In this document: piece by piece, positions 20,717 to 41,726 of the stretch
Position numbering within the stretch: the stretch's first letter is position 1
Layout: each line of letters opens with the position of its first letter
DNA from: a phage
Length of the DNA stretch: 47,775 bases
Direction: 5' to 3' (one strand)
Sequence record: PZ445409.1
Position numbers and translations under genes: made by a program
Notes under the pieces: model-generated
The model's input: only the letters and a program-made list of their open reading frames with translations
Told to the model about the DNA's origin: nothing
The model's database searches: none

Positions 20717-20758
20717 ACTATACACGATCCGACAAGCTGGGTTTAGCAAAAAGTGCTA
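20717..20758 (-). promoter_or_regulatory. phage promoter unit upstream of cor (variant element + TATAGT)
   Basis: Minus strand TAGCACTTTTTGCTAAAC then 18 nt then TATAGT; AAGGAG RBS and cor ATG follow. Confidence 0.5.
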
Positions 20759-21128
20759 CATGTTATTTTTTGTTTTCCGGTGTTATCGGATTTAAGACGG
20801 CGTAAATTTAGCGCAAATTTTAGCCAACATAATAACAATAAATAATCAATAAAATAGATATATACATATAAAATCAATAGTTTATTTATTTATGTATGTA
20901 TATTTGTTTTTTCTTGTTATCTGTGTTCCTTGTGGTTTTGGTTGTTTGTGGTGATTTTTCTTTCTGAGTATCTGTATGTGCCATCATTCATGTGTATGTA
21001 TATAATCCGGCGTATCTGAGAGAACAAGGGAACAAGAAAAATAACACATATTAATCATTAACTTACGAGTCAAATTTGTTTTATTGCCATATGAGAACGT
21101 TTAGAAAACAGAAAAAACAAATCACCTA
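20759..21128. repeat. AT-rich regulatory region A with alternating Pu/Py (GTATGTATAT) blocks and T/G-rich core
   Basis: Noncoding; shares TTCCG-GATAAC elements, GTATsTATAT blocks, T/G-rich core and GGGAACAAGAAAAA (21028-21041) with region B in the same orientation. Confidence 0.5.
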
Positions 21129-21185: not shown

Positions 21186-22247
21186 ATGAATAAATTTATG
21201 GCTTACACCAGCGCAGAAATGAGCAACGAGCTTTATCACGATCCAGAAGCATGGACGGCTGAATATGTTAGCGGTTCAAGTCTGGCAGAGATTTACAGCA
21301 CTTGCCCTGCTGCGTGGAAGTTCAAGCCTCGCGACGATAAGAGCAAGGCGCTCATTTTCGGTACGCAGTCGCATACCAACTTCGAAAGCAAGGATCTATT
21401 TAATAAAACTTACCGCCGTGCACCAGCGCCGGAAGACTTCAAAGAGTTAATCACAAGTCAAACGGCATTAGCTGCAAAGCTGAAATCTTTTGGCCTGAAA
21501 GGGACAAGCGGAAAGGCTTACCCCGACCTTATCAAAATGATGGTTGATTGTGGCGAAGACCTTAACATCATGTGGTTAATCGACATGATCGCAGAAAGCC
21601 AGGCCAGAGCCGACGGCGTACAGTTAATCGACGCGAAAGATTACGATGCTTGCGTGGCAATGCGCCAGGTTCTGGAATCCATACCGGAACATAACGCCTG
21701 CATGAACAGCCCGACGGCACAGCGTGAATTGTCGTTATTCGGCGAAATCAACGGCGTAAAAGTTAAAGTTCGATGTGATCACGTTGACGTAGTGAAAAAC
21801 GTCACCGCCACGCTGATTGATGGTTATGACGAAAAAGGTCAGCCAATTTGCCGCGATATTATCTATCCAGAAGCGGTTGTTATCACTGACTACAAAACAA
21901 CAATGAGCGCAAATCCGATGGAGTTTATGCGACTGGCTTACAACCACGGCTATTATCTGAAAATGGCGCTGCAACATGATTTATTCAGGAAGGCATATCC
22001 AGACGAGAAGCGCCCTGTAGTTATGCGCCTGTTAGCCCAGGAGAAGAAAGAGCCTTATTTGCCGTTGGCTTTCCGCATGAACAGCGAGCAATTGAAGATA
22101 GGCCGAGTCCAGTATGTTAGCGTGATCCAACAGTTTGCTATGTGCCAGCATCATGACGTATGGCCTGCGTATGCAAACGGTGAGCCGGAAGTTTGCTTGG
22201 ATACGCCTGAATTTGTGCGCCGACAGTTCAAGCAGTATCTGATTTAA
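21186..22247 (+). CDS. PD-(D/E)XK recombination exonuclease (RecE/YqaJ-like)
   Basis: 353-aa ORF, GAGGA RBS; D...VITDYKT nuclease-core-like motif; first gene after sigma70-like promoter 21129-21156; followed by Erf and SSB. Confidence 0.55.
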   Translation: MNKFMAYTSAEMSNELYHDPEAWTAEYVSGSSLAEIYSTCPAAWKFKPRDDKSKALIFGTQSHTNFESKDLFNKTYRRAPAPEDFKELITSQTALAAKLKSFGLKGTSGKAYPDLIKMMVDCGEDLNIMWLIDMIAESQARADGVQLIDAKDYDACVAMRQVLESIPEHNACMNSPTAQRELSLFGEINGVKVKVRCDHVDVVKNVTATLIDGYDEKGQPICRDIIYPEAVVITDYKTTMSANPMEFMRLAYNHGYYLKMALQHDLFRKAYPDEKRPVVMRLLAQEKKEPYLPLAFRMNSEQLKIGRVQYVSVIQQFAMCQHHDVWPAYANGEPEVCLDTPEFVRRQFKQYLI

Positions 22248-22323
22248 ACCGCACAAATAGCTAAACAAATGATTAGCGCGGTGTTATAATTCGCCGCGCA
22301 GGTTAACAAATAATGGATTAATT

Positions 22324-22977
22324 ATGCAGCTATCAGAGAAATTCGATCTTGTACTTCCGGCGCTACACAAAGCGCGTTCAATGTTTGTGAAGGTTAAAAA
22401 AGACCGACAAAACAGCCATCTGAAAAACCGTTACGCCACACTTGACGCTGTACTTGATGCAATAACTCCAGCGTTGATGGATAACGACCTAATGCTAATG
22501 CAGGACGGCAGCCGCATCGAAAATAACACGCTGCGAGTCGAAACAACAGTAATGCACACATCAGGTCAGTGGGTGAAATATTTCTTTGACATCCCAATTG
22601 TGAAGAATGATCCGCAAGGCGTAGGTTCTGCTTTCACCTATGGGCGACGTTATGCGGCGGCGGCAGCGTTCGGTTTAAGCCAGGCTGACGACGATGCGCA
22701 AATCGCTGTTAAGTCTGCGAACGACTGGAAACGCGATCTTGATAAATGTGAGTCAGTACCTGAATTGCAGGAAACATTCAAGAAAGCATGGAGCGCAAGC
22801 GATCCAGCAAGTAAACAGGTCGTTAAGGAACACTACGAGAAACGCAAAGCAGAAATCGAAATCGGCGGCGCGCGCGGTTTTAATCCAGCGCAACCAAAAA
22901 AGAATCTTGCAAGTGATTCCGTTGACACCGCAAAACATGAGCAAGTACAATCGGCTAACATCACCGATTTTGAATAA
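22324..22977 (+). CDS. Erf-family single-strand annealing protein
   Basis: 217-aa ORF; [18 protein letters not shown] motif typical of ERF proteins; between exonuclease and SSB. Confidence 0.65.
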
Positions 22978-23018
22978 AAACGGGGCGCTTGCGCCCCATT
23001 TTCATAGGAGAAAACAAA

Positions 23019-23465
23019 ATGCACGTAGTCACAGGAACGATCAGAAAAGAGCCATACACAAAAGAAGGACAAAGCAACTCCGGCGCTTACAAGATGTATA
23101 TTGTGGAATTGTCGGAGTCTATTAAAGACAGACAGAGTGGTGAACGGATATATTCAAACTATAGCGCAACGTTCTTCGCATCAAGCGATGCAATGCGTCA
23201 TTGGTATGATAACGCGTTGCAGGTTGGTAAAGTCGTTTCCATCTCTGCGGAAGTTCTACGCATCAACCAGCGCGAGCATAACGGTAACAACTATGTAACG
23301 TTGCAGATGGAACAACCACGACTGGTATTCAGCCAGCGCACCGAAGGACAGCAGCAACAGCAGAATCAAGGTGGATGGGGGCAACCGCAACAGCAGCATC
23401 CTCGCCAGCAACCACAGCAAAGCAATCAGCCGCCAATGAATTTTGACGACGACATTCCATTCTGA
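23019..23465 (+). CDS. ssb: single-stranded DNA-binding protein
   Basis: 148-aa ORF, AGGAG RBS; Gln/Gly-rich linker and acidic C-terminal tail ending DDDIPF, hallmark of SSB. Confidence 0.8.
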   Translation: MHVVTGTIRKEPYTKEGQSNSGAYKMYIVELSESIKDRQSGERIYSNYSATFFASSDAMRHWYDNALQVGKVVSISAEVLRINQREHNGNNYVTLQMEQPRLVFSQRTEGQQQQQNQGGWGQPQQQHPRQQPQQSNQPPMNFDDDIPF

Positions 23466-24205: not shown

Positions 24206-24484
24206 TTAAGCCCATTCTCTAATAGGCTGATCTAACTCAACCACGTAGTCGTTAAAAATTACGGCATCAAACTTATCATCAATGATTCGCACATTGACGA
24301 AATAGCCGTCGTTCTTTTGCGCAATCTCCTCGCCATCGTCAGATCGTGCAATTACTGTGTAAGTAGTGCCGATTACATCAAGCATGATAGCGTTTTGAAG
24401 CTCATCATTATCATGCCATTCGATTTCGTCCAGAAAGGCGGAAAACTCCGCCTTGTCTACAAATTTCAGTGTTAAATCGCGCAT
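24206..24484 (-). CDS. hypothetical small protein (fibre-associated)
   Basis: 92-aa ORF from ATG 24484 with TAATG overlap to tail fibre stop (track start 24625 lies inside the fibre gene). Confidence 0.45.
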   Translation of the reverse strand: MRDLTLKFVDKAEFSAFLDEIEWHDNDELQNAIMLDVIGTTYTVIARSDDGEEIAQKNDGYFVNVRIIDDKFDAVIFNDYVVELDQPIREWA

Positions 24485-26451
24485 TATACAATTTCCCCTA
24501 ATTGATGATCTGTTAATTCTTTGTGCCAAATACGCAAGTTCTTGACGTGTCCGAAAAGATGGAGTTCGCCTGTACTTGTTTGTCCGCCAATCCTTATAGT
24601 AGCCGTTGATACTATATATCTCCATTCCGTTTTTGTTTCGCTTGATATTCTGGCATTACTTACACAACAAGTATTGTAATCACTCTTTACTCTCATTCCT
24701 ATGATCATCTTTTTTAGTTTCGCATTCTCGTTAACCCTTCTGTTTGATTTACCTATATCGCAATAAGGGAATCCATCAGCATCGCCTTCGGCAGACCCGA
24801 AAGCAAGAATAATTCCCGCACCAGATTGATGACCTCCAGTATCGAAAACACGAGGCGCAGCATTTGGCGTTCTACTCCAGTTTTTATGAGCCTCCACAAG
24901 AACTGTAAACGGCAAATTGTAAAGGTTGTTTTTTATTGGCACTGTAACCATATCGCTTGCCCTTGTAACTGGCTTATCGCCAGTTACAATTAAAGACGAA
25001 GCAGATGATCCGTTTTCAACTTGGGCGGTAGCTAGAGTCATAAATTGACCTGCGGTAACATCCTGACCTTCCCTTGCTGCCATCTCAACGCGAGCATACA
25101 TCTTTATATCTTCTGGTGCTTTATATGTACCCTGGAATAATACCCATCCACCTGATTCCTGCTTCACATCATACGTCAACTTATTTCCTCCAGTCACATC
25201 AAGAGTGACAAGATCTAACATCACGTCAGCTATAAATGTGTTTCCCTGCCCATCAGGATTTAGCTTGGAGAATCGCAATCTTAACCTAACTGGTGAAGAA
25301 TATTCCTCGCCGATTCTTGCGCGTATTGAGATAGTACCATACTCACCATTCGCAACATCCACTACGCGAGATACACCAGTTGAAATTGCTGTAATCGGTA
25401 CAGTATCTTGACTTTCTTTATAAGTAAATTTAGCGGAAGTTATACCAAATTCATCTGTAGAATTAGCGGATACGTCCAACCTATTTAAGTTTCTATTCCA
25501 TTTGTCCGGTGAATTGCTATTACTGAAGTTGTTTGTTCTCTGCCCTTCAATCAGCAATCCATCTCTTTCAAAACGTGGTTCATCAATTGCTGCAACGGTA
25601 AGAATACCTGATTTGTTAATGTATGTTGCAGTTGATGCACGTTTAAATTTGACAATCTTGTCGCCCGGCATCGTGATCTCATCGTCACCTATGACAATCT
25701 TTTTGTATGACGGCGAGAATCCGGTAATCATATCCAGGGAATCATTAAATGGTATCCACACGTCCGGCAACGGTTGCAATAAGTCTTTGTAAGGTTCTGC
25801 GGCCTGCTTTGCGTATTCCTCCGCTTGATCTCGCGCACTTTCAGCTCCTGCCTTTGCAGTTTTCGCAGCGTCACGCGCGGATTCAGCGCCAGACTTTGCT
25901 GCTTCAGCGCCAGTCTTTGCAGTGTTTGCAGCGTCGCGCGCGGATTCAGCGGCAGCCTTTGCAGTATCAGCGCCTTTCTTGCTATTCGCTGCATTTGTTG
26001 CGCTTGTCTTCGCGCTATTCTCGCTGGTTTTAGCTGCCTGCTGGCTTGCTGCTGCTGCGTCAGCATTTGTCTTTACGTCTTCTTGGATCTTCTGTAGCTT
26101 ATCCCAATCAAAATCCTTGATGATCTCAATAAATCCAGCAAGCTCCGACTCTTTCCCCATGTAGTAGCGCAATGTTTCCGCTACGTCTTGCGCCAGGCCA
26201 TCAACAGTTAACGAGTCATGAAGCAAGATTATGTAGTCTGAACGGGGAACAACAGCACCACCAGTGGTGATTGCTCGAATGCTAGTATCGTTGACCACTT
26301 CGGTGATAACTGCGGCCTGTAGCGGCTGTGTCAGAAAAATAATGGTTGCGCCGGAACGGATCAGCGTTAACTGCTCACGCCAGTTCGTCCCGTAGCCAGT
26401 TATATAGCCTTGAGCGTCCATTGACGCTTGACCTTTGCGATAAATTGCCAT
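24484..26451 (-). CDS. side (L-shaped-like) tail fibre protein
   Basis: 655-aa ORF from ATG 26451 with AGGAGA RBS; Ala/Lys/Glu-rich coiled-coil segment after a conserved-looking N-terminal domain; beta-rich distal part. Confidence 0.65.
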   Translation of the reverse strand: MAIYRKGQASMDAQGYITGYGTNWREQLTLIRSGATIIFLTQPLQAAVITEVVNDTSIRAITTGGAVVPRSDYIILLHDSLTVDGLAQDVAETLRYYMGKESELAGFIEIIKDFDWDKLQKIQEDVKTNADAAAASQQAAKTSENSAKTSATNAANSKKGADTAKAAAESARDAANTAKTGAEAAKSGAESARDAAKTAKAGAESARDQAEEYAKQAAEPYKDLLQPLPDVWIPFNDSLDMITGFSPSYKKIVIGDDEITMPGDKIVKFKRASTATYINKSGILTVAAIDEPRFERDGLLIEGQRTNNFSNSNSPDKWNRNLNRLDVSANSTDEFGITSAKFTYKESQDTVPITAISTGVSRVVDVANGEYGTISIRARIGEEYSSPVRLRLRFSKLNPDGQGNTFIADVMLDLVTLDVTGGNKLTYDVKQESGGWVLFQGTYKAPEDIKMYARVEMAAREGQDVTAGQFMTLATAQVENGSSASSLIVTGDKPVTRASDMVTVPIKNNLYNLPFTVLVEAHKNWSRTPNAAPRVFDTGGHQSGAGIILAFGSAEGDADGFPYCDIGKSNRRVNENAKLKKMIIGMRVKSDYNTCCVSNARISSETKTEWRYIVSTATIRIGGQTSTGELHLFGHVKNLRIWHKELTDHQLGEIV

Positions 26452-26469
26452 CTGTAATTTTCTCCTGTA

Positions 26470-26488
26470 TAGCACTTTTTGCTAATGA
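26470..26488 (-). promoter_or_regulatory. inverted copy of conserved element abutting RBS of side tail fibre gene
   Basis: Coding (minus) strand reads TCATTAGCAAAAAGTGCTA then tACAGGAGA RBS then ATG at 26451. Confidence 0.45.
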
Positions 26489-27542: not shown

Positions 27543-28019
27543 TTAGCTATTCGTGCTGTTATCACCTTTGTAGAATCTTCCGCCTGGTTCGTAGTCTGAA
27601 TTTTTGACTACGCGCAACATTTCGTATTTGTCGCAACGGGTAGTAAGAGGCTTGCCGTTAGAATCAAACCGCAGATCTGGACGACAAAACGAGGCGCGGT
27701 ATCCTTTGCATCCATTATATTTGTAGTCGTTATGCACCTTTTGTGCTCCAGCGGCTGAAATCATACCACGCTTTCGCCATTGGTTAACAACTTGCTGAGA
27801 TACGCGCAGACGTCGAGCCATAGCAGGAACGCCGCCGTAATACTCGATCAGAATGTCAAGGCGAGATTTCAGGCTTGCTTTTACCTCATCTCGCAGGATA
27901 AGAAATCCGGTTCGATGTTTTCGTGGCTTTTTGTCTTTACCTCGTCGCGTTCCGTTGTTACCGTTAATAGTGCGCTTGTCGATCTCACCAGTAGACACTG
28001 CAATTCGTGCATCTTTCAT
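27543..28019 (-). CDS. XRE/Cro-like HTH DNA-binding protein
   Basis: 158-aa ORF with GAGGTGA RBS; helix-turn-helix GGVPAMARRLRVSQQVVNQWRKRG; Cys-rich C-terminal part; inverted copy of the conserved 19-bp element in its 5-prime UTR. Confidence 0.55.
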   Translation of the reverse strand: MKDARIAVSTGEIDKRTINGNNGTRRGKDKKPRKHRTGFLILRDEVKASLKSRLDILIEYYGGVPAMARRLRVSQQVVNQWRKRGMISAAGAQKVHNDYKYNGCKGYRASFCRPDLRFDSNGKPLTTRCDKYEMLRVVKNSDYEPGGRFYKGDNSTNS

Positions 28020-30603: not shown

Positions 30604-31329
30604 ATGGCTAAAGATATTTTAGATAAAGACACCCATGACGCATTCGTTAGCTTTGAGCAGTTGGAGAGAGAAACGTTTATAGGGAATGCCCTTACAACTG
30701 GAGGCCATTACCAGGCAGTAAAGCCAAATCAATATTATAAGGTAAGTGGCAACCGATACGCTGGAAGCACCACGCCGGACGTTGTGCGCGATATGTGGAG
30801 CACGCCTCAAGAGATTGTGGAGTGGATGGAATCAGAATTTGGTGAATACGATCTCGACGCGGCAGCAAGCCAGGAAAACGCAGTTTGCGAGAAGTTCTAT
30901 AGCAAGGAAACAAACTGCTTAAAGCGTTGGCGGGGTAGCAACAAGCACGTATGGCTTAACCCGCCGTACAGCAACCCAACTCCATTTATCAAGAAAGCAA
31001 TTGAGCAAATGGAGCACAACAACCAAATTGATGTTTTGTTGCCAGCCGACAACTCTACAGCATGGTTTTATGATGCGCAGAAAAACGCGGCTGAAATCAT
31101 CTGGATCACTGGCGAGGTTTACGAAGAGGGTGGAGTAGAATACTCCCGCACCGGAAGAATCGCCTTTGTGTCTGGATTGACTGGCGAGCCTGTACAGGGC
31201 AACAACAAGGGGGGCGTGATTTTTGTCATGCGAAAACTTAAAGAAGGCGAGGAGCAGAAAACGCGATACGTTAAGATCAGCGATATTTGCCCTTCTGTAA
31301 CCGAACGCCGCGCGCGCAAACGGAGCTAA
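30604..31329 (+). CDS. dam: DNA N6-adenine methyltransferase (Dam-like)
   Basis: 241-aa ORF from ATG 30604 (GGAG RBS 9 nt upstream; track start 30577); NPPY motif (WLNPPYSN); phage Dam family. Confidence 0.75.
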   Translation: MAKDILDKDTHDAFVSFEQLERETFIGNALTTGGHYQAVKPNQYYKVSGNRYAGSTTPDVVRDMWSTPQEIVEWMESEFGEYDLDAAASQENAVCEKFYSKETNCLKRWRGSNKHVWLNPPYSNPTPFIKKAIEQMEHNNQIDVLLPADNSTAWFYDAQKNAAEIIWITGEVYEEGGVEYSRTGRIAFVSGLTGEPVQGNNKGGVIFVMRKLKEGEEQKTRYVKISDICPSVTERRARKRS

Positions 31330-31333
31330 CACG

Positions 31334-31591
31334 ATGAAAAAAGAGAGAAGCGTTTATTTAAATGAAACTGGCGAATGGTTGTTATTTCGCGCTATGGTGT
31401 GCGATGCACTTGATAAAAATCCTAACGTGAAAAAGATGATTGATTGCGATCCGTGGGAATTTTCAAGCGCATTAGATATGAGCTTTGAGGAGACAAGAAA
31501 ACTCCCGCTTGAAAAATGGCACGAACAAATCAGAAATGACATGCAAGAGTTTGTTGATTCGTGGAATTTTCAGCACGGAATGATCCACTAA
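31334..31591 (+). CDS. hypothetical protein
   Basis: 85-aa ORF with GGAG RBS; its TAA stop is directly followed by promoter unit 31592-31634. Confidence 0.5.
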   Translation: MKKERSVYLNETGEWLLFRAMVCDALDKNPNVKKMIDCDPWEFSSALDMSFEETRKLPLEKWHEQIRNDMQEFVDSWNFQHGMIH

Positions 31592-31634
31592 TAGCACTTT
31601 TTGTTAAAACGCCCGGCCTAGTGTCGGGCATAAT
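31592..31634 (+). promoter_or_regulatory. phage promoter unit (element + spacer + CATAAT)
   Basis: Element directly after TAA stop; 18-bp spacer gcccggcctagtgtcggg identical to the minus-strand unit at 34810-34852. Confidence 0.6.
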
Positions 31635-31667
31635 TATTTCAACGAAGCAAACATGAGGAAATAAAAA

Positions 31668-31847
31668 ATGGTGGTATTCGATAAACGCGCTTTTAATCTT
31701 GCTCAAGAAGTAGCAAAAGGTTCAGTTGATGGCGGTTCAAAGGAAGGGTTCCAGTTTGATTGGGAGATCGCAATGTTTTTACTGAAAGTTGCATACGGTC
31801 ACGCGCCAATTGAACAAGCGGAGGCATATTATAAGCATGAAGGTTGA
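31668..31847 (+). CDS. hypothetical small protein (59 aa, not in ORF track)
   Basis: ATG 31668 with GAGGA RBS about 35 nt after the promoter hexamer; translated by hand, no internal stops; stop TGA 31845-31847 overlaps next ATG. Confidence 0.4.
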   Translation: MVVFDKRAFNLAQEVAKGSVDGGSKEGFQFDWEIAMFLLKVAYGHAPIEQAEAYYKHEG

Positions 31848-32079
31848 GCAAGGGAGAGAGGCGGTATGGAATCACGCTAAAGAATGCGGTATTGCCGACG
31901 ATATAAAGAAGATCGCGCAATACTTTGATATTGCAGATGTGAGCATAATTAGCGGTGATAAGATGACTTTCCTCAAGGAAAGGCCGCGAAAAATGGTAAG
32001 AGTTCCAGCAGTTCCAACAAAAATTGATTTCAAAGAGGCAATGGCTAAAATCCGAGAGCCTCGCAAATATTATAAATGA
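31837..32079 (+). CDS. hypothetical protein
   Basis: 80-aa ORF from ATG 31837 overlapping upstream ORF (track start 31789). Confidence 0.4.
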   Translation: MKVEQGREAVWNHAKECGIADDIKKIAQYFDIADVSIISGDKMTFLKERPRKMVRVPAVPTKIDFKEAMAKIREPRKYYK

Positions 32080-32173
32080 GGATAGTTATCATGTGGCGCT
32101 TGTTTGTTCTACCGTTACACGTTATCATCGCTGTTACAGTTATGTACCATATAGTAATGAGATAGGTAGCAGA

Positions 32174-33289
32174 ATGAAAAATGTAAAAATTACAGATGAG
32201 CAATTCAAGATCGAACGGGCGGCAGGTAAGACATATAAACAGATCGCTCAAGAGTACGGAATGAATGTGAGAAGCGTCGAGCGTCGCGCGGCGCGTCTTG
32301 CAAAGCAAGGACAGTTATCGACCATTGGAGCGCCTGGTTTTGGTGTTCATGGTGAGTCAGTAATGACCGACAAAGAAGGCAACATAATCCTCAAGTGGAC
32401 CAAAACCAGCAAGGACAAAGAGCAATTAGAAGCATTGATGCGCGCAGCAATGGAGGCGTTTAGCGAGGAAGTGCCGCGATTAGATCCAGTTCCATTGCAG
32501 GAGCGTGACTATAATGAAACGCTTTCATTGTATCCGATCTTTGACATGCACTTAGGCGCTATGGCCCATAAGCACGAATGCGGCGAAAATTGGGATACTG
32601 CGACGGCGGAGCGCGTTATGAATAACTTTATCGACTATGCTTTGATGTGCGCACCTGACAGTGAAAAGGCTGTTATCCTGATTGGTGGCGACATGCTTCA
32701 TAGCGATGGCCTGGAGGCTGTGACCCCTGCAAGCGGTCACGTACTTGATCAAGATAGCCGATATGCAAAATTGGTTTACGTTGCAATACGTGCAATGCGC
32801 CGCGCAATTAATAAAATGCTGTTAAAGCATAAACATGTTGAGGTCCAGATCGTTGAGGGCAATCACGACCAATCAGGAATGATTTGGCTACGCGCAGCAA
32901 TGGCGGCAGCATATGATAACGAGCCGCGCGTTTACGTTGATGTTTCTCCTCGCGTTGTTCACCACACGCAATACGGAAAAACTTTCCTTGCGTACCATCA
33001 CGGGCACACAGTGCGTAAACCGGAGACTTTGCTAATGATGTGCGCGTCAGATTGGCGGGAGGACTTCGGAAACTCAAAAACGATGTATGCGCACGTAGGG
33101 CACTGGCATCACCAGACCGTGACGGAAACGTCGCTTGGGATCGTGGAGGTACATAGCACCCTGGCGGCAAAAGACGCATACGCCGCGCGCGGTGGCTGGA
33201 GATCTCGACGCCGTGCAGCGGTTATCATTTACGACAAAGAGCATGGAGAAGTTGGGCGATTTGTTCACTATCCAGAAATGATGAATTGA
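32174..33289 (+). CDS. HTH domain fused to calcineurin-like metallophosphoesterase
   Basis: 371-aa ORF from ATG 32174; N-terminal sigma-70-region-4/resolvase-type HTH (KTYKQIAQEYGMNVRSVERRAARL); phosphoesterase motifs DMH, GGDMLHSDG, GNHD, GHWHH. Confidence 0.6.
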   Translation: MKNVKITDEQFKIERAAGKTYKQIAQEYGMNVRSVERRAARLAKQGQLSTIGAPGFGVHGESVMTDKEGNIILKWTKTSKDKEQLEALMRAAMEAFSEEVPRLDPVPLQERDYNETLSLYPIFDMHLGAMAHKHECGENWDTATAERVMNNFIDYALMCAPDSEKAVILIGGDMLHSDGLEAVTPASGHVLDQDSRYAKLVYVAIRAMRRAINKMLLKHKHVEVQIVEGNHDQSGMIWLRAAMAAAYDNEPRVYVDVSPRVVHHTQYGKTFLAYHHGHTVRKPETLLMMCASDWREDFGNSKTMYAHVGHWHHQTVTETSLGIVEVHSTLAAKDAYAARGGWRSRRRAAVIIYDKEHGEVGRFVHYPEMMN

Positions 33290-33335
33290 TGAATTTTTAT
33301 TTAAATCAATGACAAATTAAATCAAAAACTTGCAA

Positions 33336-33365
33336 AGGGGCGGCGTTTGTCGCCTCTTTTTTTTG
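33336..33365 (+). terminator. intrinsic terminator before lysis cassette
   Basis: Imperfect hairpin aggggcggcgtttgtcgcctct + T8. Confidence 0.5.
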
Positions 33366-33435
33366 TTTAAATTTTTATCATGTGCGTTTATTATGCGGTT
33401 AATATATTGACTTTAATTAATATGGAGCATTAAAA

Positions 33436-33651
33436 ATGAAAGATTTTATTAACGCAGCTACAGCCGGATCTGGCGGTTCATCTATCGCAAGCGCCGCTAC
33501 AGGTCAGTTAACCATTGCTATTGCCAGCTTTGTTTTAATGGCTGCATTCGGTGCGTGGGGTGCTTACCTTCGCTGGCGTGATAGTAAAAAATTCCACGAG
33601 GCGATCGAAAAAGGTGATATTCAAAAAGCTATTGAAATCAGGGGCAAGTAA
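33436..33651 (+). CDS. holin
   Basis: 71-aa ORF, GGAG RBS; Gly/Ala-rich hydrophobic segment then charged C-terminus; immediately upstream of endolysin with TAATG overlap. Confidence 0.55.
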
Positions 33652-34142
33652 TGAGCATCAAGAACAGGGTGGCGGCGGCGGCCTTTGGCGTTGCGGTTGC
33701 CTTGACTTCTCCACTTCTTGAAGAGATCGAAGGGGTAAGATACAAGCCATACAAAGATATTGCGGGAGTATGGACGGTTTGCGCAGGAATCACCGGACCA
33801 GATGTTATCCTGGGGAAAACGTACACTAAAAAAGAGTGTGATGCTTTGTTGGCTAAGCATATCCAGGTTGCTAAAAAGGAAGTTGACAAGCAGGTTAAGG
33901 TTGACATTCCTGATAGTATGCGTGCAGCAATGTACTCATTCACTTACAATGCAGGTGTGGGAGCTTTCAGAAATTCAACAATGCTGAAACTCATCAACCA
34001 GGGGAAATTAAACGAGGCTTGCGATCAGCTTTATCGTTGGACGTATTACCATAACCCCAAAACAGGAAAGCGCGAGAAGTCTAAAGGCTTACTTAACAGG
34101 CGCAAGGTCGAATACAAATATTGCACAATGGATCTGAAATGA
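33651..34142 (+). CDS. SAR endolysin (T4 lysozyme-like muramidase)
   Basis: 163-aa ORF; weakly hydrophobic Ala/Gly-rich N-terminal signal-anchor-release segment; E..D..T catalytic spacing (EEIEG..YKD..GVWT). Confidence 0.7.
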
Positions 34143-34534
34143 TGAAGAAATTTTTATTTACACCAATCGCAATGGCGGTGATCTTGTCTGGATGTTCAAG
34201 CGTTACGCCACTGACCGGATTAATCGGCAGTAAGCCGGAAATAACAGCACAGGCTGGCGCGGAGAACGTGAAGCAGACAGTTGGCATTACAGCAAAGCAG
34301 GACGCCAGCACAAAACAGGAAACCACAATAAAGGAATCTGCGGTTGACAAGGTGGACACGTCCAGCAAGAAGGATTTCACAACATCAACCATTCAGGCCA
34401 ATACCATCAAGGCAGACAAAATTCAGGTCGTGCAGGGTAATAACGGCAGATGGTACGATCCAATAATCATATGCATGGTTGTGTTCATTGTGCTGATTTG
34501 TCTTTACTGGAGGGAAAAGAAAAAGGAGGCTTAA
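34139..34534 (+). CDS. unimolecular spanin (u-spanin)
   Basis: 131-aa ORF overlapping endolysin stop; N-terminal lipoprotein signal with lipobox LSGC plus C-terminal transmembrane helix ([16 protein letters not shown]); T1 gp11-like architecture. Confidence 0.7.
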
Positions 34535-34550
34535 TGCCTCCTTTATTTTT
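34525..34550. terminator. bidirectional intrinsic terminator after spanin / after 34549-34773
   Basis: A-run, hairpin ggaggcttaatgcctcc, T-run; convergent genes on both sides. Confidence 0.65.
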
Positions 34551-34773
34551 ATGCGTCGGGCCACATATGAGTTTCGTTTGTTGGCTTGTTCGATTCGTCG
34601 TACTGCCTTACTTCAATGCTGCAAGTGTCGCCGTACAGTTCTGCAATCTTGCGCTCATTTTCAACCGCCGATTGCTCACTCCATCCAAAATCCCTGTCGT
34701 AAATTGTCGGTATTTCAGCAGAAGATCCGTTGTCATGATTATATACGCGAACTACTAAAAACTTGCTGGACAT
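34549..34773 (-). CDS. hypothetical protein
   Basis: 74-aa ORF with AAAGG RBS; first gene after promoter unit 34810-34852; ends at bidirectional terminator. Confidence 0.5.
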   Translation of the reverse strand: MSSKFLVVRVYNHDNGSSAEIPTIYDRDFGWSEQSAVENERKIAELYGDTCSIEVRQYDESNKPTNETHMWPDA

Positions 34774-34809
34774 AATTTTACCTTTTGGTTGTTTCGTTTC
34801 GATGAAACA

Positions 34810-34852
34810 AATATACCCGACACTAGGCCGGGCGTTTTAACAAAAAATGCTA
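34810..34852 (-). promoter_or_regulatory. phage promoter unit (element + TATATT)
   Basis: Minus strand TAGCATTTTTTGTTAAAAC + gcccggcctagtgtcggg + TATATT; inverted near-identical copy of 31592-31628. Confidence 0.6.
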
Positions 34853-35044
34853 TTCCATACGCTTTACCGTAACCAGTAATACACCATCATCATTGCATAA
34901 AACATGTTCAGTGGTGCTAAAAGCGCGCATATCTGAATAAAGTAGCGTAAGTAAAGCATGAATAAAATCCTCATGTGATATTGAATTTACGGCGCAGTGC
35001 TTCAAGATCTTGTCTATTAGCTTTTGCCTGGAACAATTCATCAT
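34850..35044 (-). CDS. hypothetical small ORF (alternative frame)
   Basis: 64-aa ORF whose TAG stop is the TAG of the conserved promoter element (as for several other genes); overlaps 3-prime end of 34971-35366 by 74 nt in another frame. Confidence 0.25.
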   Translation of the reverse strand: MMNCSRQKLIDKILKHCAVNSISHEDFIHALLTLLYSDMRAFSTTEHVLCNDDGVLLVTVKRME

Positions 35045-35366
35045 CGCCCATCTCCCCTATTCTCGCCATATCCCTGATCCAGTCGTTGCGCATACCATCC
35101 AGGCTATACAATTCGAATCCGAAAGGCCGCTTTGACGATCCTTTGGACCAGTATTTTCCGCAGACCCCATCTATATAACCAGCCGTCATCATTCTTGCGC
35201 AAAATTCCTTAGATGCAAGGCTGGCGAACATTCGCGGCGTAAGTCCGGCGGCCCGTGCGAGCCGCTCACATTCTCTATGCTGATAGATAAATTTGGCTAT
35301 GTGCTGCCTGTTAAACCAGTCGTATGACTCACACCATTTATACAGATCAAGCAAAAACATAATCAT
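34971..35366 (-). CDS. hypothetical protein
   Basis: 131-aa ORF; ATG overlaps stop of upstream ATPase gene (ATGA), indicating translational coupling. Confidence 0.5.
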   Translation of the reverse strand: MIMFLLDLYKWCESYDWFNRQHIAKFIYQHRECERLARAAGLTPRMFASLASKEFCARMMTAGYIDGVCGKYWSKGSSKRPFGFELYSLDGMRNDWIRDMARIGEMGDDELFQAKANRQDLEALRRKFNIT

Positions 35367-36946
35367 CCCAGCAGTATTGGATTGACAAAAATAACACCAT
35401 TAATCACACAAACATAATTTCTTTCTTCCAGCATTGGCAGCAAGTGCCCTTCTATCCTCTTCATTACGCCAGCCTGACCAACGAAAGGTTTTACCTTTCT
35501 CGCTGATTCGTACAGGGCGCGAATATTCAGGATCCCTTTGTTAGCCTTGCCGTGTCTAGTGATCAATTCAATCAATTTACCCATTTCAGCATCATCACCA
35601 GCATAACCAGAAGCATTGGCGGCGCTAATGTATGTTTTGCTCAATTCCTGAAACATGATCAGCGCCTCTTGCATTGTTTCCACGTCGATCTCTTTCGACT
35701 TCTGCGGGTATCCGGCAGGATTAAACCAGTTGCGGATAACATGCAGGACGGAAGCAAGCCTGATCACCTGTTTATCCATTTTACCCAGCGCACCGCGTAA
35801 CATTGTATGAGAATACTTTCCGCCGTCTGCAAGATGCGGTTCCATATCCTGGCGAGCAATGTTGAGCACTCGCATAGCTGAACGGCTTATTTTCAGCGAT
35901 ATATTTGATTCGCTCATGATGTTATGCACCAATTGATAATATTGGGCCTTCAATTCAGGATCCACCGCCTCATAGGTAGAATCACCATTTTCATCAATGA
36001 ATGAGCGACGGCCTAAGAATGATTCCTCACGGACCAACAAAAAGCGCTCACTCACACCGATACCGCGCGATCCAGCGTCCATGATTCCGCTTATCGTTTC
36101 ATCCTGGGCTATAACGCTCATACATCCAAGCGCGCGAAAACTCATGTTATTGTCAGCATTAGCACGGGCAATTGATACGTGACCATTATCCCACGCCTTA
36201 AGCACTAGCTCGCTGTTAGTCTTCCTTTCGCTATTGGCATAGGTCAAGCCTAACAGGCTGTTAATACTTGTTGCTTCGTCAGATATTACGGCAAAGTTAC
36301 CTTGCTTGTTGTTGATTTTCGCCAAGCCTTCTGGAGTGGTATCTGAAACAGGGAAAGTTATATCACACATCTTTTCCAGCTTCTCCTCCAGATCCTCTTT
36401 TTCCTGGTATAGAGATTCCATATCAGCGCCTGATCTTTCGCTTTTCATCTCCTTTGCAAGACCTGCCAACTTTGCCTGTATTTTCTTTCTTTCCTTGCGG
36501 CGTTGCTCGTTGATCTTCTCAACTTCCGCAATCATCGGAGCAATAGCCATACTGTTGATCGCAGATTTACCAGTTGACGGCGGCTGGCTTGTAACTACGT
36601 AAAGCGCAGTCGGCTGATCTGTTCCGTGGTAGTCAACTGTGAATCGACCAAGCATAGCGGCAGAAATACATCCGATAAAGTGCATGTAGGCCGATGATTC
36701 AGGGAATTGAACAGATCTCGCAAGATTGCGCGCCAGCTTACCAACTACATCAACATCATTCCCAAGTGAAATAACAGGGTAGCGGTCGTTACCGCCGTTA
36801 ATATCTTCCACCTGGCCCCAATAGCTTGAAGATTGGCGGTATCCGTTGGCCTGAATGGATACACGAACAGGGGAAATACCTTGAGATTCGGCGGTTTCAA
36901 TGATTTGTTTCGGTGATAACTGACTTGTTTCAAATGAAAAATTCAT
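35363..36946 (-). CDS. P-loop NTPase (DUF3987/primase-helicase-associated-like)
   Basis: 527-aa ORF with AGGAG RBS; deviant Walker A (QPPSTGKS), central charged coiled-coil segment; driven by promoter unit 36974-37016. Confidence 0.5.
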   Translation of the reverse strand: MNFSFETSQLSPKQIIETAESQGISPVRVSIQANGYRQSSSYWGQVEDINGGNDRYPVISLGNDVDVVGKLARNLARSVQFPESSAYMHFIGCISAAMLGRFTVDYHGTDQPTALYVVTSQPPSTGKSAINSMAIAPMIAEVEKINEQRRKERKKIQAKLAGLAKEMKSERSGADMESLYQEKEDLEEKLEKMCDITFPVSDTTPEGLAKINNKQGNFAVISDEATSINSLLGLTYANSERKTNSELVLKAWDNGHVSIARANADNNMSFRALGCMSVIAQDETISGIMDAGSRGIGVSERFLLVREESFLGRRSFIDENGDSTYEAVDPELKAQYYQLVHNIMSESNISLKISRSAMRVLNIARQDMEPHLADGGKYSHTMLRGALGKMDKQVIRLASVLHVIRNWFNPAGYPQKSKEIDVETMQEALIMFQELSKTYISAANASGYAGDDAEMGKLIELITRHGKANKGILNIRALYESARKVKPFVGQAGVMKRIEGHLLPMLEERNYVCVINGVIFVNPILLG

Positions 36947-36973
36947 TAAATCGACTCCTATTTGGTGCGGTGT

Positions 36974-37016
36974 ATGTTACCGCACCAATACTACCCTTAT
37001 TTGTCAAAAAGTGCTA
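36974..37016 (-). promoter_or_regulatory. phage promoter unit (variant element + TAACAT)
   Basis: Minus strand TAGCACTTTTTGACAAATA + 18 nt + TAACAT; upstream of ATPase gene. Confidence 0.5.
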
Positions 37017-37025
37017 TTTGATCCG

Positions 37026-37235
37026 CTAGATTGCAACCAGTAGGCGATCTGGCTGGCGGTCGCTGTAGCATTCTCCGGTTACATCATCCTTAAAAGTGAA
37101 GTAAAGCGACTTGTGATATGAATACCCAATCAGCCAACCTTCCGCAGTTCTCTTTATTGGCCTGACAATATCGCCAGGCTTGAAAGTTGCAGTTGTGGCG
37201 TGAGTTACTTTATATCGGTATTCACTGCGGATCAT
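37026..37235 (-). CDS. hypothetical protein
   Basis: 69-aa ORF; ATGA overlap with upstream gene. Confidence 0.5.
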   Translation of the reverse strand: MIRSEYRYKVTHATTATFKPGDIVRPIKRTAEGWLIGYSYHKSLYFTFKDDVTGECYSDRQPDRLLVAI

Positions 37236-37618
37236 GAATATTTGGCCTCAAAAAGATAAGAGTAACCAGCAGAGAATCCGACCTCCTCGCGGTAGAGCGT
37301 CCATCGGTCGCCGTCCTCATCGAAGACGTAACCAGCAACTGATCCAAGAACGCGACCCTGTTCGACCTGGTAACGCTTTCCAGCTTTAAAACTTTTTTTG
37401 GTTTTCACCCGGTGATCAACAAACGTACATAGAATCGTCTTTGCCTTGATAGTGCGGTATTCGTCCTGGTTGGCTGATTCCCACTTCGCGCCCTTAGCCA
37501 GCGCCTTAACCTGAAATTCCTCCACCTCGATCACGTCGTCGCTGCCAGCTACTTTTGTGTAAACAGTTTTATAGCGACAGTTCATCAATTTGTTGTCGGA
37601 ATTGCGGATAACTTTCAT
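37232..37618 (-). CDS. hypothetical protein
   Basis: 128-aa ORF with GGAG RBS; first gene after promoter unit 37651-37693. Confidence 0.5.
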   Translation of the reverse strand: MKVIRNSDNKLMNCRYKTVYTKVAGSDDVIEVEEFQVKALAKGAKWESANQDEYRTIKAKTILCTFVDHRVKTKKSFKAGKRYQVEQGRVLGSVAGYVFDEDGDRWTLYREEVGFSAGYSYLFEAKYS

Positions 37619-37650
37619 TTGATTTTCTCCAGTTGTTTTCGTTGAAACGC

Positions 37651-37693
37651 ATTATGCCCGACTCAAGGTAGGGCGTTTTAACAAAAAGTGCTA
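37651..37693 (-). promoter_or_regulatory. phage promoter unit (element + CATAAT)
   Basis: Minus strand element starts with methyltransferase-like gene stop TAG; hexamer at 37656-37651. Confidence 0.6.
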
Positions 37694-38377
37694 TTTTGAG
37701 TTTGCCTCAAATACGGCGCGAGCAAATCCTCGCGGAGTGAGGGAGCGTAGTTGCTTTGTTCTGGCAGACTTACCTCCTAAAAACTTCCAACCCCAAAAGA
37801 ACATTACTCCCTCATCATTGCGTAACGGCTTGCGTTCCGGTTCGGTAAATCCGTTGCCGCACCAGATAGCCGTCCTTTTTGTGTAGCCATCCTTTAGCGG
37901 CATCTTGGGGTGAAAAGATCCATCGGATTCGTCCAGGTAGTTACCAAAATCGCGCGGATTGAAATAAAAATCAGGCTTGCGCCATAGCGTTGATAGTCGG
38001 CCTACAGGATTCTCAGCCATCCAGGGAACACCGAAATGATTCCCGACAGTTTCAACCATGATTGCATTTTTGAGCGCGATCTGAATATCATCATCGCTTC
38101 GCACGTGCTTGCTTCCTGATTGGGCAAACATGGTGCAGTCTGGAAATCCAAATACAATATCTGGTTTTGGAATATCCATCTTACTGATTCTTTCAATGAA
38201 ATTTTCATCAATCCACATATTAACATAATGCAGATTTTCATTCTTCATCTTGATGAAATATTCGCCGTGATTTCCCTCATCAGCGTTAAAGCAATAGCAT
38301 TGATAGCCAGCCTTCGCATATTCAAGCAGCATGATTCCAGATCCATCAAACATTGAGTAAGCAACTTTATTTCCCAT
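37691..38377 (-). CDS. DNA C5-cytosine methyltransferase-like protein lacking a target-recognition domain
   Basis: 228-aa ORF from ATG 38377 (track start 38437 is TTG); motif I SMFDGSG, motif IV-like DIVFGFPDC, motif VI-like MAENPVG, motif X-like RSLTPRGFARA; no region long enough for a TRD; TAG stop is first triplet of promoter element. Confidence 0.55.
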   Translation of the reverse strand: MGNKVAYSMFDGSGIMLLEYAKAGYQCYCFNADEGNHGEYFIKMKNENLHYVNMWIDENFIERISKMDIPKPDIVFGFPDCTMFAQSGSKHVRSDDDIQIALKNAIMVETVGNHFGVPWMAENPVGRLSTLWRKPDFYFNPRDFGNYLDESDGSFHPKMPLKDGYTKRTAIWCGNGFTEPERKPLRNDEGVMFFWGWKFLGGKSARTKQLRSLTPRGFARAVFEANSK

Positions 38378-41306: not shown

Positions 41307-41726
41307 TTGGTTGCAGTGGAGATAGTGAAACCTTCCCCTCTTGCCTCACTTTTCCGCCTGGCTGTCAGTGGTTGTTATGTTCCGTTTTCGCCTGTTCTTT
41401 TGTTGACCTTCCGCAAAATACGATAACAAAAAATAACAAACAATACCTATATAATACATTGAAAAATAAGGATTATTTATTTATATGTATCTATATATTC
41501 TCTTTTGTTATCTTGGTTATTGTGGTATTTGGTGGGGGTATATAGTTTTTGTGTATCTATATGTGTGTATGGGTATGTAGGGGCATATATATCTATATGG
41601 CACTTTCCGCGATAAAACTTCGATAACAAGCAATGATAACATTGATTTATAAGGAAAAATAACGCCCATATTGTTATTGTGCCACCATATAAAATTGATA
41701 AAACACGCGGGAACAAGAAAAAACAG
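41307..41726. repeat. AT-rich regulatory region B, paralogous to region A
   Basis: TTCCGC..CGATAAC at 41409-41427 and 41605-41627; GTATCTATAT blocks at 41487, 41553, 41589; T/G-rich core 41499-41545; GGGAACAAGAAAAA at 41709-41722. Confidence 0.5.

Follow-up and report, generated by a model that had tools for sequence, protein, structure and literature searches.

A 47,775-nucleotide (nt) stretch of phage DNA (sequence record PZ445409.1; hereafter "the window", meaning this whole stretch) carries two near-identical 37-bp sequences, here termed A and B, that lie in inverted orientation on either side of a gene block containing the lysis genes, and the locus raises the question of whether the pair acts as a recombinational switch or has become alike for some other reason. 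A sequence-only reading of the window had described the two as promoter cores, ascribed their likeness to recent duplication or gene conversion, and proposed that recombination proteins of the phage could use them to invert or exchange the intervening 3.2-kb segment. Our comparisons favor, with a probability of about 0.68, an account in which A and B are paralogous promoter cassettes with spacer hairpins that were made identical by short-tract copying and do not form an inversion switch. The phage is a T1-like coliphage with 99.3% identity to Escherichia phage tonijn over positions 31000-35500 (Drexlerviridae; Tempevirinae; Warwickvirus), and both copies (A, 31590-31610, + strand; B, 34834-34854, - strand) are members of the 21-nt intergenic repeat of the Drexlerviridae, consensus aaATAGCACnnnTTGnTAAAA.

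The near-identity of the two cores was borne out. The core of A, TAGCACTTTTTGTTAAAACGCCCGGCCTAGTGTCGGG (31592-31628, + strand), and that of B, TAGCATTTTTTGTTAAAACGCCCGGCCTAGTGTCGGG (34852-34816, - strand), agree at 36 of 37 positions, with a C/T difference at position 6 of the conserved 19-mer as the sole mismatch, and share an exact run of 31 nt, compared with 19-23 nt for any other pair of window copies. When the copies were aligned together with their flanks, the inverted repeat extended to 62 nt at 89% identity (31590-31651 and 34793-34854; repeat search). Within the spacer that follows the repeat, A and B are identical at 18/18 positions, whereas the median for the 12 copies in the window whose -10 hexamer is in register is 6/18. 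The family consensus does not suffice to explain the identity of A and B, nor does chance. The further claim that other copies have unrelated spacers did not survive the comparison, as the spacer of a third copy, C (GCCCTACCTTGAGTCGGG), is identical to A and to B alike at 14/18 positions; within the Drexlerviridae repeat family, A, B, and C form a subtype with one common stem. Their parts are as follows:

31590-31610, + strand: 21-nt repeat of copy A, predicted to span -51 to -31, starting right behind the TAA stop codon of orf85
31611-31629, + strand: spacer stem-loop of copy A, GCCCGGC-CTAGT-GTCGGGC (7-5-7, one G.U pair), its last base being the first of the -10
31629-31634, + strand: -10-like hexamer of copy A, CATAAT, with a predicted start at the A at 31641 in a conserved CA
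34834-34854, - strand: 21-nt repeat of copy B, whose TAG doubles as the stop codon of orf64 (34850-35044, - strand), which lies upstream
34815-34833, - strand: spacer stem-loop of copy B, GCCCGGC-CTAGT-GTCGGGT, its 18 spacer bases being those of A, followed by the U-rich UAUAUUUGUUU
34810-34815, - strand: -10-like hexamer of copy B, TATATT, with a predicted start at the A at 34803
37651-37695, - strand: copy C (repeat 37695-37675, 19-mer 37693-37675), with stem-loop GCCCTAC-CTTGA-GTCGGGC and hexamer CATAAT, heading orf128

If the pair were a switch, exchange between the two copies by the phage RecE/Erf proteins or by host RecA would flip the 3.2-kb segment through its 31-37-bp repeat and yield two isomers. 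The repeat is real, it is inverted, and its perfect run of 31 nt comes close to the shortest length that Red- or RecA-type recombination needs. A crossover within the cores would keep each transcription unit behind a cassette and in the direction of its neighbors, and would probably be viable. As the sequence-only reading held, recombination proteins are encoded in the window, and this machinery could mediate short-homology exchange:

21186-23465, + strand: recombination module, comprising a RecE-like exonuclease (21186-22247), an Erf-like annealing protein (22324-22977), and SSB (22989-23465)

Only one orientation of the segment was found, however, when it was compared in related genomes. The A-B segment has the same orientation relative to its left flank in 50 of 50 related loci, and the gene order dam+, orf85+, orf59+, phosphoesterase+, holin+, endolysin+, spanin+, orf74-, ydbL-, helicase- is kept in 48 of them (tblastn, down to ~50% amino-acid identity). 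In the two exceptions, L034 and L038, it is the right-hand block that differs and not the A-B segment, which is a different, older rearrangement; in L034 (IMGVR_UViG_2974728900_000001, Rogue1-like) the ydbL, helicase, and orf128 homologues lie on the lysis-gene strand, and in L038 only the helicase does. In each of the 17 Warwickvirus genomes A and B lie 3258-3261 nt apart, and colinear, single-place matches cover at least 80% of positions 31000-35500 in 96 records by megablast and in 127 by blastn. In vB_Eco_mar001J1 (H17/H18), an HNH endonuclease gene is inserted in the A-B segment and the match is split into two colinear pieces. Two 637-nt synthetic inversion junctions, used as queries against 50,697 phage records, reached a best cover of 57-59% in any record, which corresponds to one flank plus the core, and of the 15 matches that the shared core gave in metagenome and IMG/VR contigs, 11 had A-left/A-right flanks, 4 had B-left/B-right flanks, and none had hybrid ones. 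No site-specific invertase is annotated in the relatives' records that were viewed, although none was searched for and no recombinase screen of the window was made. The identical pair, moreover, occurs in only 6 of the 17 Warwickvirus genomes, and other family pairs, whose inverted identity in register runs to 19-23 nt, or to 24 nt at most once flanking bases are counted, showed no rearrangements.

With colinearity, junction queries, synteny in the 50 loci, and flank typing of metagenome and IMG/VR contigs all negative, inversion isomers were rejected, and we regard a flipping segment as very improbable; this evidence consists of assemblies, from which rare isomers within a phage population could escape. 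Orientation is thus fixed, and the likeness of the two copies is nonetheless not confined to what the family shares. The G segment of Mu, the C segment of P1, and the Hin, Gin, and Cin segments, as well as isomers formed across long inverted repeats, resemble this locus in being bounded by an inverted repeat, but the repeat here measures 31-37 bp and is part of a promoter family, and the second orientation is found in no related genome.

How, then, did A and B come to be identical? Comparison across genera indicates that site B is old, being present in several of them, and is not a recent duplicate. In other genera site B is distinguished by a hairpin (ACCCGAT-CTTGT-ATCGGG), a hexamer (TATATT), and a leader (TGTTTCATCGAAACGAA) that are all peculiar to it, and site A reads (T)GCCCGGC-GAAA-GTCGGG or a compensated variant of this; in Hanrivervirus, A and B have the same loop, CTTGT. 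The B spacer of the window differs from that of Hanrivervirus at 5-6 of 18 positions. The paralogues within the window, which match at 18/18, are therefore more alike than the B orthologues of different lineages.

Alleles of the two sites were then surveyed in the 17 Warwickvirus genomes. Site A has the loop CTAGT or ATTTT, and site B occurs as GCCCGGC-CTAGT (equal to A), as TCCCGAC-CTTGT (3 differences from A), as GCCCGAC-CTATT, as TCCAGGC-CTAGT, and, in MatMar, as GCCCGGC-TTATA. Full identity of A and B over 18/18 positions is limited to the 6 genomes mentioned above, and all combinations of A and B alleles occur. Where B equals A, every changed base goes to the state of A, including the G.U mismatch of A, and the identical tract is bounded by bases specific to each site (TAGCAC and CATAAT at A; TAGCAT and TATATT at B). 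The stem shared by A and B is also found, with other loops, at site C in the window, in MatMar, and in A14b. C itself lies on a mosaic module that is present in MatMar and the A14b group and absent from tonijn; this C/orf128 module (~36950-37765) has ~70% identity to tonijn and most Warwickvirus and 95-98% to MatMar, Jahat_MG145, BEBK14, and the A14b group. The C stem of the window is mismatched (GCCCTAC), and that of MatMar reads GCCCGAC. Phages with the identical pair include tonijn and FritzSarasin/Bas04, and both identical copies, A and B, are also present on a metagenome contig (L058; ULUX01022366.1).

These patterns suggest that short-tract gene conversion is the likely explanation for the identity of A and B. 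In the lineage of the window, the loop of B and two further bases would have become A-like by short, non-reciprocal copying, through gene conversion or template switching that could have used the ~13 nt and 8 nt over which the flanks agree, and the perfect 31-nt inverted repeat would be a by-product of this homogenization of cassettes. Plain common descent would instead make B, or just its hairpin, a recent duplicate of A that has not diverged, with variant alleles imported by recombination and no ongoing conversion. Alleles are indeed shuffled between genomes, as all four combinations of the A alleles a1 and a2 with the B alleles b1 and b2 exist and the breakpoints lie in cassettes. The variant B allele, furthermore, sits in a haplotype that is ~8% diverged on both sides, where 3/18 differences are no clear local excess; this counts against conversion, and local substitution density around B was dropped as proof of it. 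Because the density of change proves nothing by itself, the case for conversion rests on the direction of the changes and on the pattern among paralogues. Common descent, on the other hand, has to accommodate a site B that is old and has its own hairpin, -10, and leader across several genera, an A-like state restricted to the tract between two site-specific markers, as is the signature of a short conversion patch, and the existence of the hybrid alleles b3 and b4, and we consider it unlikely. Of the two origins first proposed, gene conversion thus remains as the best explanation, whereas recent duplication does not fit the age of site B. Concerted evolution by gene conversion leaves the same pattern, with paralogues identical within a lineage and orthologues differing between lineages, but the converted tract here, known from comparison alone, would be very short compared with known cases (at most 31 nt and at least ~10 nt).

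We next considered what kind of element has been copied. A 21-nt direct repeat with the consensus aaATAGCACnnnTTGnTAAAA has been described for phage TLS, in which 18 copies are intergenic, oriented with transcription, and placed ~76 nt 5' of start codons; it was also noted in T1, Rtp, and Rogue1, only three sigma70-like promoters were found in TLS, and the function of the repeat was left as an open question between stoperator, enhancer site, and UP element (PMC11447400). The 21-mers of A (AATAGCACTTTTTGTTAAAAC) and B (AATAGCATTTTTTGTTAAAAC) both match this consensus, and the window family agrees with that of TLS in intergenic placement, orientation, and distance to start codons, with ~16 copies against 18-21 in TLS. 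That paper treats the repeat alone, whereas in our alignments it appears to be part of a fixed cassette with a hairpin spacer, a -10, and a CA start. In each window copy, a conserved 19-mer (TAGCACTTTTTGTTAAAAC) is followed by a variable spacer of 18 nt, a -10-like hexamer, a leader of ~30 nt, a ribosome-binding site, and an ATG, which lies 76 nt (A), 79 nt (B), or 75 nt (C) from the start of the 19-mer, on the same strand as the downstream open reading frame (ORF).

The regularity of this layout was examined in a family pool comprising the window and 66 further loci, drawn from 21 GenBank phages and from contigs of IMG/VR and of metagenomes. A hexamer with A at its second and T at its sixth position, a criterion to which both CATAAT of A and TATATT of B conform, lies exactly 18 nt 3' of the 19-mer in 92% of 136 unique hits and at 17 nt in 5%, against a background of 7.4%. 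Among 142 unique cassettes, scored at positions outside the search constraint, AA at -52/-51 is nearly invariant, G is found at -14 in 129, and a CA dinucleotide follows 6-7 nt past the hexamer (C at -1 in 126, A at +1 in 124), leading into a leader with the consensus A(T/A)CGAAAC.AA. The only -35-like hexamer, TTGTTA, lies 21 nt rather than 16-18 nt from the -10, positions -35 to -30 read AAAACN, and a consensus promoter scan of the window called neither A nor B; a canonical sigma70 promoter was therefore rejected. Because no usable -35 hexamer is present, we take the cassette to be a non-canonical promoter at which a factor that recognizes the 21-mer is probably needed for initiation.

A partial dyad, TAGCA-N5-TG(T/C)TA (31592-31606 in A), is embedded in the 19-mer; it is perfect in TTGCTA variants and is centered near -42 if the conserved A is +1, and it goes unmentioned in the TLS paper (PMC11447400). 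Such a position would be reminiscent of a class II activator site. Sigma70 promoters that depend on class II activators likewise combine a good -10 with the lack of a workably spaced -35 and a partly dyadic element near -42, although the element here is only partly symmetric, its start is a predicted one, and the activator is hypothetical. Examples of the class include promoters with CRP or FNR sites centered at -41.5 and the Mor- and C-dependent promoters of Mu, which lack a -35. Host Lrp came up as a candidate reader, the 21-mer presumably being similar to the Lrp consensus. It was dropped, as a Keio screen with the T1-like phage LL5 required only lipopolysaccharide genes, tolC, secB, and ppiB, with no host transcription factor among them (PMC7229145).

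Nearly every spacer of the family, between repeat and -10, contains a GC-rich hairpin of its own whose last base is the first of the hexamer, and in a second class the hairpins are longer, with a loop of 10-16 nt that contains the -10. The mean minimum free energy (MFE) of 77 unique spacers is -7.35 kcal/mol, compared with -3.01 after shuffling, and the sense strand is the more stable in 49 spacers and the antisense strand in 23, although the sequences are phylogenetically non-independent and p-values are thereby inflated. The hairpins of A (MFE -14.3 kcal/mol, z -2.03) and B (-13.2, z -2.23; only -7.1 on the antisense strand of B) have 7-bp stems with 5-6 GC pairs, and both were flagged as terminator-like in a loose terminator scan. 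Among 20 distinct sequences of sites A, B, and C, in an alignment whose rows we selected, 96.4% of cells pair in the 7-5-7 register and at most 45% in slid registers, with compensatory double changes at 3 of the 7 pairs (for example GCCCGGC/GTCGGGC to GCCCCGC/GTGGGGC or GCCAGGC/GTCTGGC) and alternation between A-U and G.U at one. Loops in the family include GAAA, GAGA, TTCG, and TACG, and in some genera site A is a textbook mini-terminator, AAAAC-CCGC-TTCG-GCGG-GTTTTGT. In the window, a co-directional upstream ORF has its stop codon right next to the cassette in 8 of 9 strong-hairpin cases, and 4 of 6 hairpin-less cassettes have no such ORF. At most hairpin cassettes the upstream stop codon abuts or overlaps the TAG of TAGCAC (e.g. 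31589-31594 and 34850-34852), so that the gene end is fused to the cassette start.

The most economical and, in our view, most likely reading of these features is that the spacer is an RNA 3'-end hairpin of the upstream operon, acting as a partial terminator or stabilizer and nested in the next promoter. It would thereby resemble intrinsic terminators and 3' stabilizing hairpins that overlap the next promoter, which also have a GC-rich stem-loop ~20 nt past a stop codon and compensatory changes. Several points weigh against this reading, in addition to the non-independence of the spacers and our selection of the alignment rows. The U-tract would come only from the AT-rich -10 region, in which it differs from typical intrinsic terminators: 3' of the stem, AUAAUUAUUU of A has 6/10 U, none of them proximal, and UAUAUUUGUUU of B has 8/11, so that both are atypical even though they pass the loose scan and that of A is weak for an intrinsic terminator. 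A U-tract is altogether missing from the hairpin class with the -10 in its loop, a co-evolving dimeric operator would show the same symmetric changes within its palindrome, and we found no mapped transcription start, 3' end, binding factor, or transcriptome in the literature on T1-like phages. Because of the weak U-tracts and the hairpin class without one, the RNA step is the uncertain part of our account. A nut-like boxA/boxB antitermination site, to which the GNRA-like loops had pointed, was rejected since a single genome has different loops and stems from site to site.

The operator alternative deserves weighing in its own right, as it would also change the interpretation of the A/B identity. 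Under it, GCCCGRC-N5-GYCGGGC binds a dimeric regulator of A, B, and C, and the copies are alike through selection rather than copying. An imperfect palindrome between an upstream element and a -10 is in the classic position of a repressor site, the stems are kept at three sites while the central 5 nt are free, as in operators, and the symmetric changes in other genera could reflect co-evolution with the regulator, for which helix-turn-helix (HTH) candidates are encoded (a regulator of 158 amino acids, at 27543-28019, and the N-terminal part of the phosphoesterase described below). Almost every other cassette of the genome, however, has a different palindrome (GGCGCG.., CCAGGT.., GCCGGAT.., CGGGTC..), which would call for many regulators. 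Nor does an operator account for the G.U asymmetry of the sense strand and the RNA tetraloops, for hairpins with the -10 inside a 10-16-nt loop, or for the association of hairpins with the ends of co-directional upstream genes, and viable genomes have every combination of A and B alleles. We therefore judge a shared operator to be improbable and retain the RNA hairpin as the preferred reading of the spacer.

Although the segment does not flip, the idea that the cassettes take part in exchange proved partly right, as crossovers between genomes fall at orthologous cassettes. Variable-site maps place a mosaic junction of tunus at the 5' edge of the 19-mer of A, and in seven genomes the orf59 module is replaced (61% amino-acid identity) from the loop of A onward. 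The breakpoint of JLBYU16 lies between the loop and the leader of A, and those of JLBYU19 and IMGVR7 lie in the leader of B; in all, crossovers inside cassettes were seen in tunus, the a2 group, JLBYU16, JLBYU19, and IMGVR7. Mosaic junctions that fall in conserved cassettes are likewise known from the boundary ("linker") sequences of mosaic phage genomes.

The sequence-only reading had also placed the lysis block under convergent promoters on either side. Convergent promoter-like cassettes that end at a bidirectional terminator are indeed what the segment contains, and the terminator was found on both strands, but the genes under the two cassettes are not the lysis genes:

31668-33289, + strand: operon headed by copy A, comprising orf59 (31668-31847), orf80 (31837-32079), and an HTH-phosphoesterase (~32093-33289)
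33334-33359, + strand: strong hairpin, like that of an intrinsic terminator, between the genes for the phosphoesterase and the holin
33366-33394, + strand: sigma70-like site TTTAAA-17-TATTAT, 3' of this hairpin and 5' of the holin gene
33436-34534, + strand: lysis genes, comprising holin (33436-33651), endolysin (33651-34142), and u-spanin (34139-34534)
34522-34544, both strands: bidirectional terminator AAAGGAGGC-TTAAT-GCCTCCTTT, common to both convergent units
34549-34773, - strand: orf74 (phrog_27210), the only gene under copy B

The phosphoesterase corresponds to the PHROG "DNA repair exonuclease", and the record of phage Sip has a terminator annotated at the place orthologous to 33334-33359. 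With the strong terminator and another promoter-like site lying 5' of the holin gene, A is not a direct lysis promoter; it would drive orf59, orf80, and the phosphoesterase, and B would drive orf74, with both units ending inside the block. A Pfam search of the small flanking ORFs returned no families. In the leader of B (34786-34809, - strand), a second small hairpin, UUUGUUUC-AUC-GAAACGAA, is kept at site B across genera and would form the 5' end of the orf74 transcript.

Taken together, these observations are consistent with a model in which T1-like phages place an intergenic cassette before most operons, consisting of the 21-nt repeat (predicted -51 to -31), the 18-nt spacer, the -10, and the conserved CA start and leader, and in which each cassette would close one transcription unit with an RNA hairpin and open the next. 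A and B would be two paralogous copies, sharing with C one stem type (GCCCGRC/GTCGGGC) whose loops vary freely, and the visible evolutionary role of the cassettes may be that of sites at which co-infecting phages cross over and exchange modules. More tentatively, and with odds that we put below even, the cassette may be a composite "stop-and-restart" element, in which the element near -42 recruits host RNA polymerase to a promoter lacking a -35 (probably via a phage protein, e.g. the conserved Cro/YdaS-like regulator), the spacer supplies the 3'-end hairpin of the upstream unit, and the cassettes act as homology linkers for modules or single hairpins; the A/B twin would then be the freshest visible example of hairpin copying.

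By itself the A/B pair is of low importance, being homogenized members of a known repeat family that do not flip the lysis block. The useful result lies at the level of the family, in the fixed 18-nt distance from repeat to -10, the conserved start dinucleotide, the covarying spacer hairpin, and the crossovers within cassettes, and this anatomy turns the published open question on the 21-base repeats into testable hypotheses. Common as contaminants in the laboratory, T1-like phages are also candidates for phage therapy, and their engineering would be helped by a defined, portable promoter-terminator cassette and by known crossover points.

Some further observations were made along the way. About 20 GenBank "Campylobacter phage" records (UNVERIFIED; L051, which is MG065640.1, H46, H47, and H125-H129) are T1-like Hanrivervirus coliphage genomes and are probably contaminants or mislabelled. 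Within a 663-amino-acid tail-fiber ORF of the window (24484-26475, - strand), two tandem 63-nt copies that are 84% identical (25840-25965) encode an alanine- and lysine-rich repeat. Finally, a 61-nt AT-rich repeat (70% identical) is found at 20882-20942 and 41473-41533, adjoining the hairpin-less family members at 20758 (- strand) and 41186 (- strand); both sites look like divergent intergenic regions and could be regulatory or origin-related.

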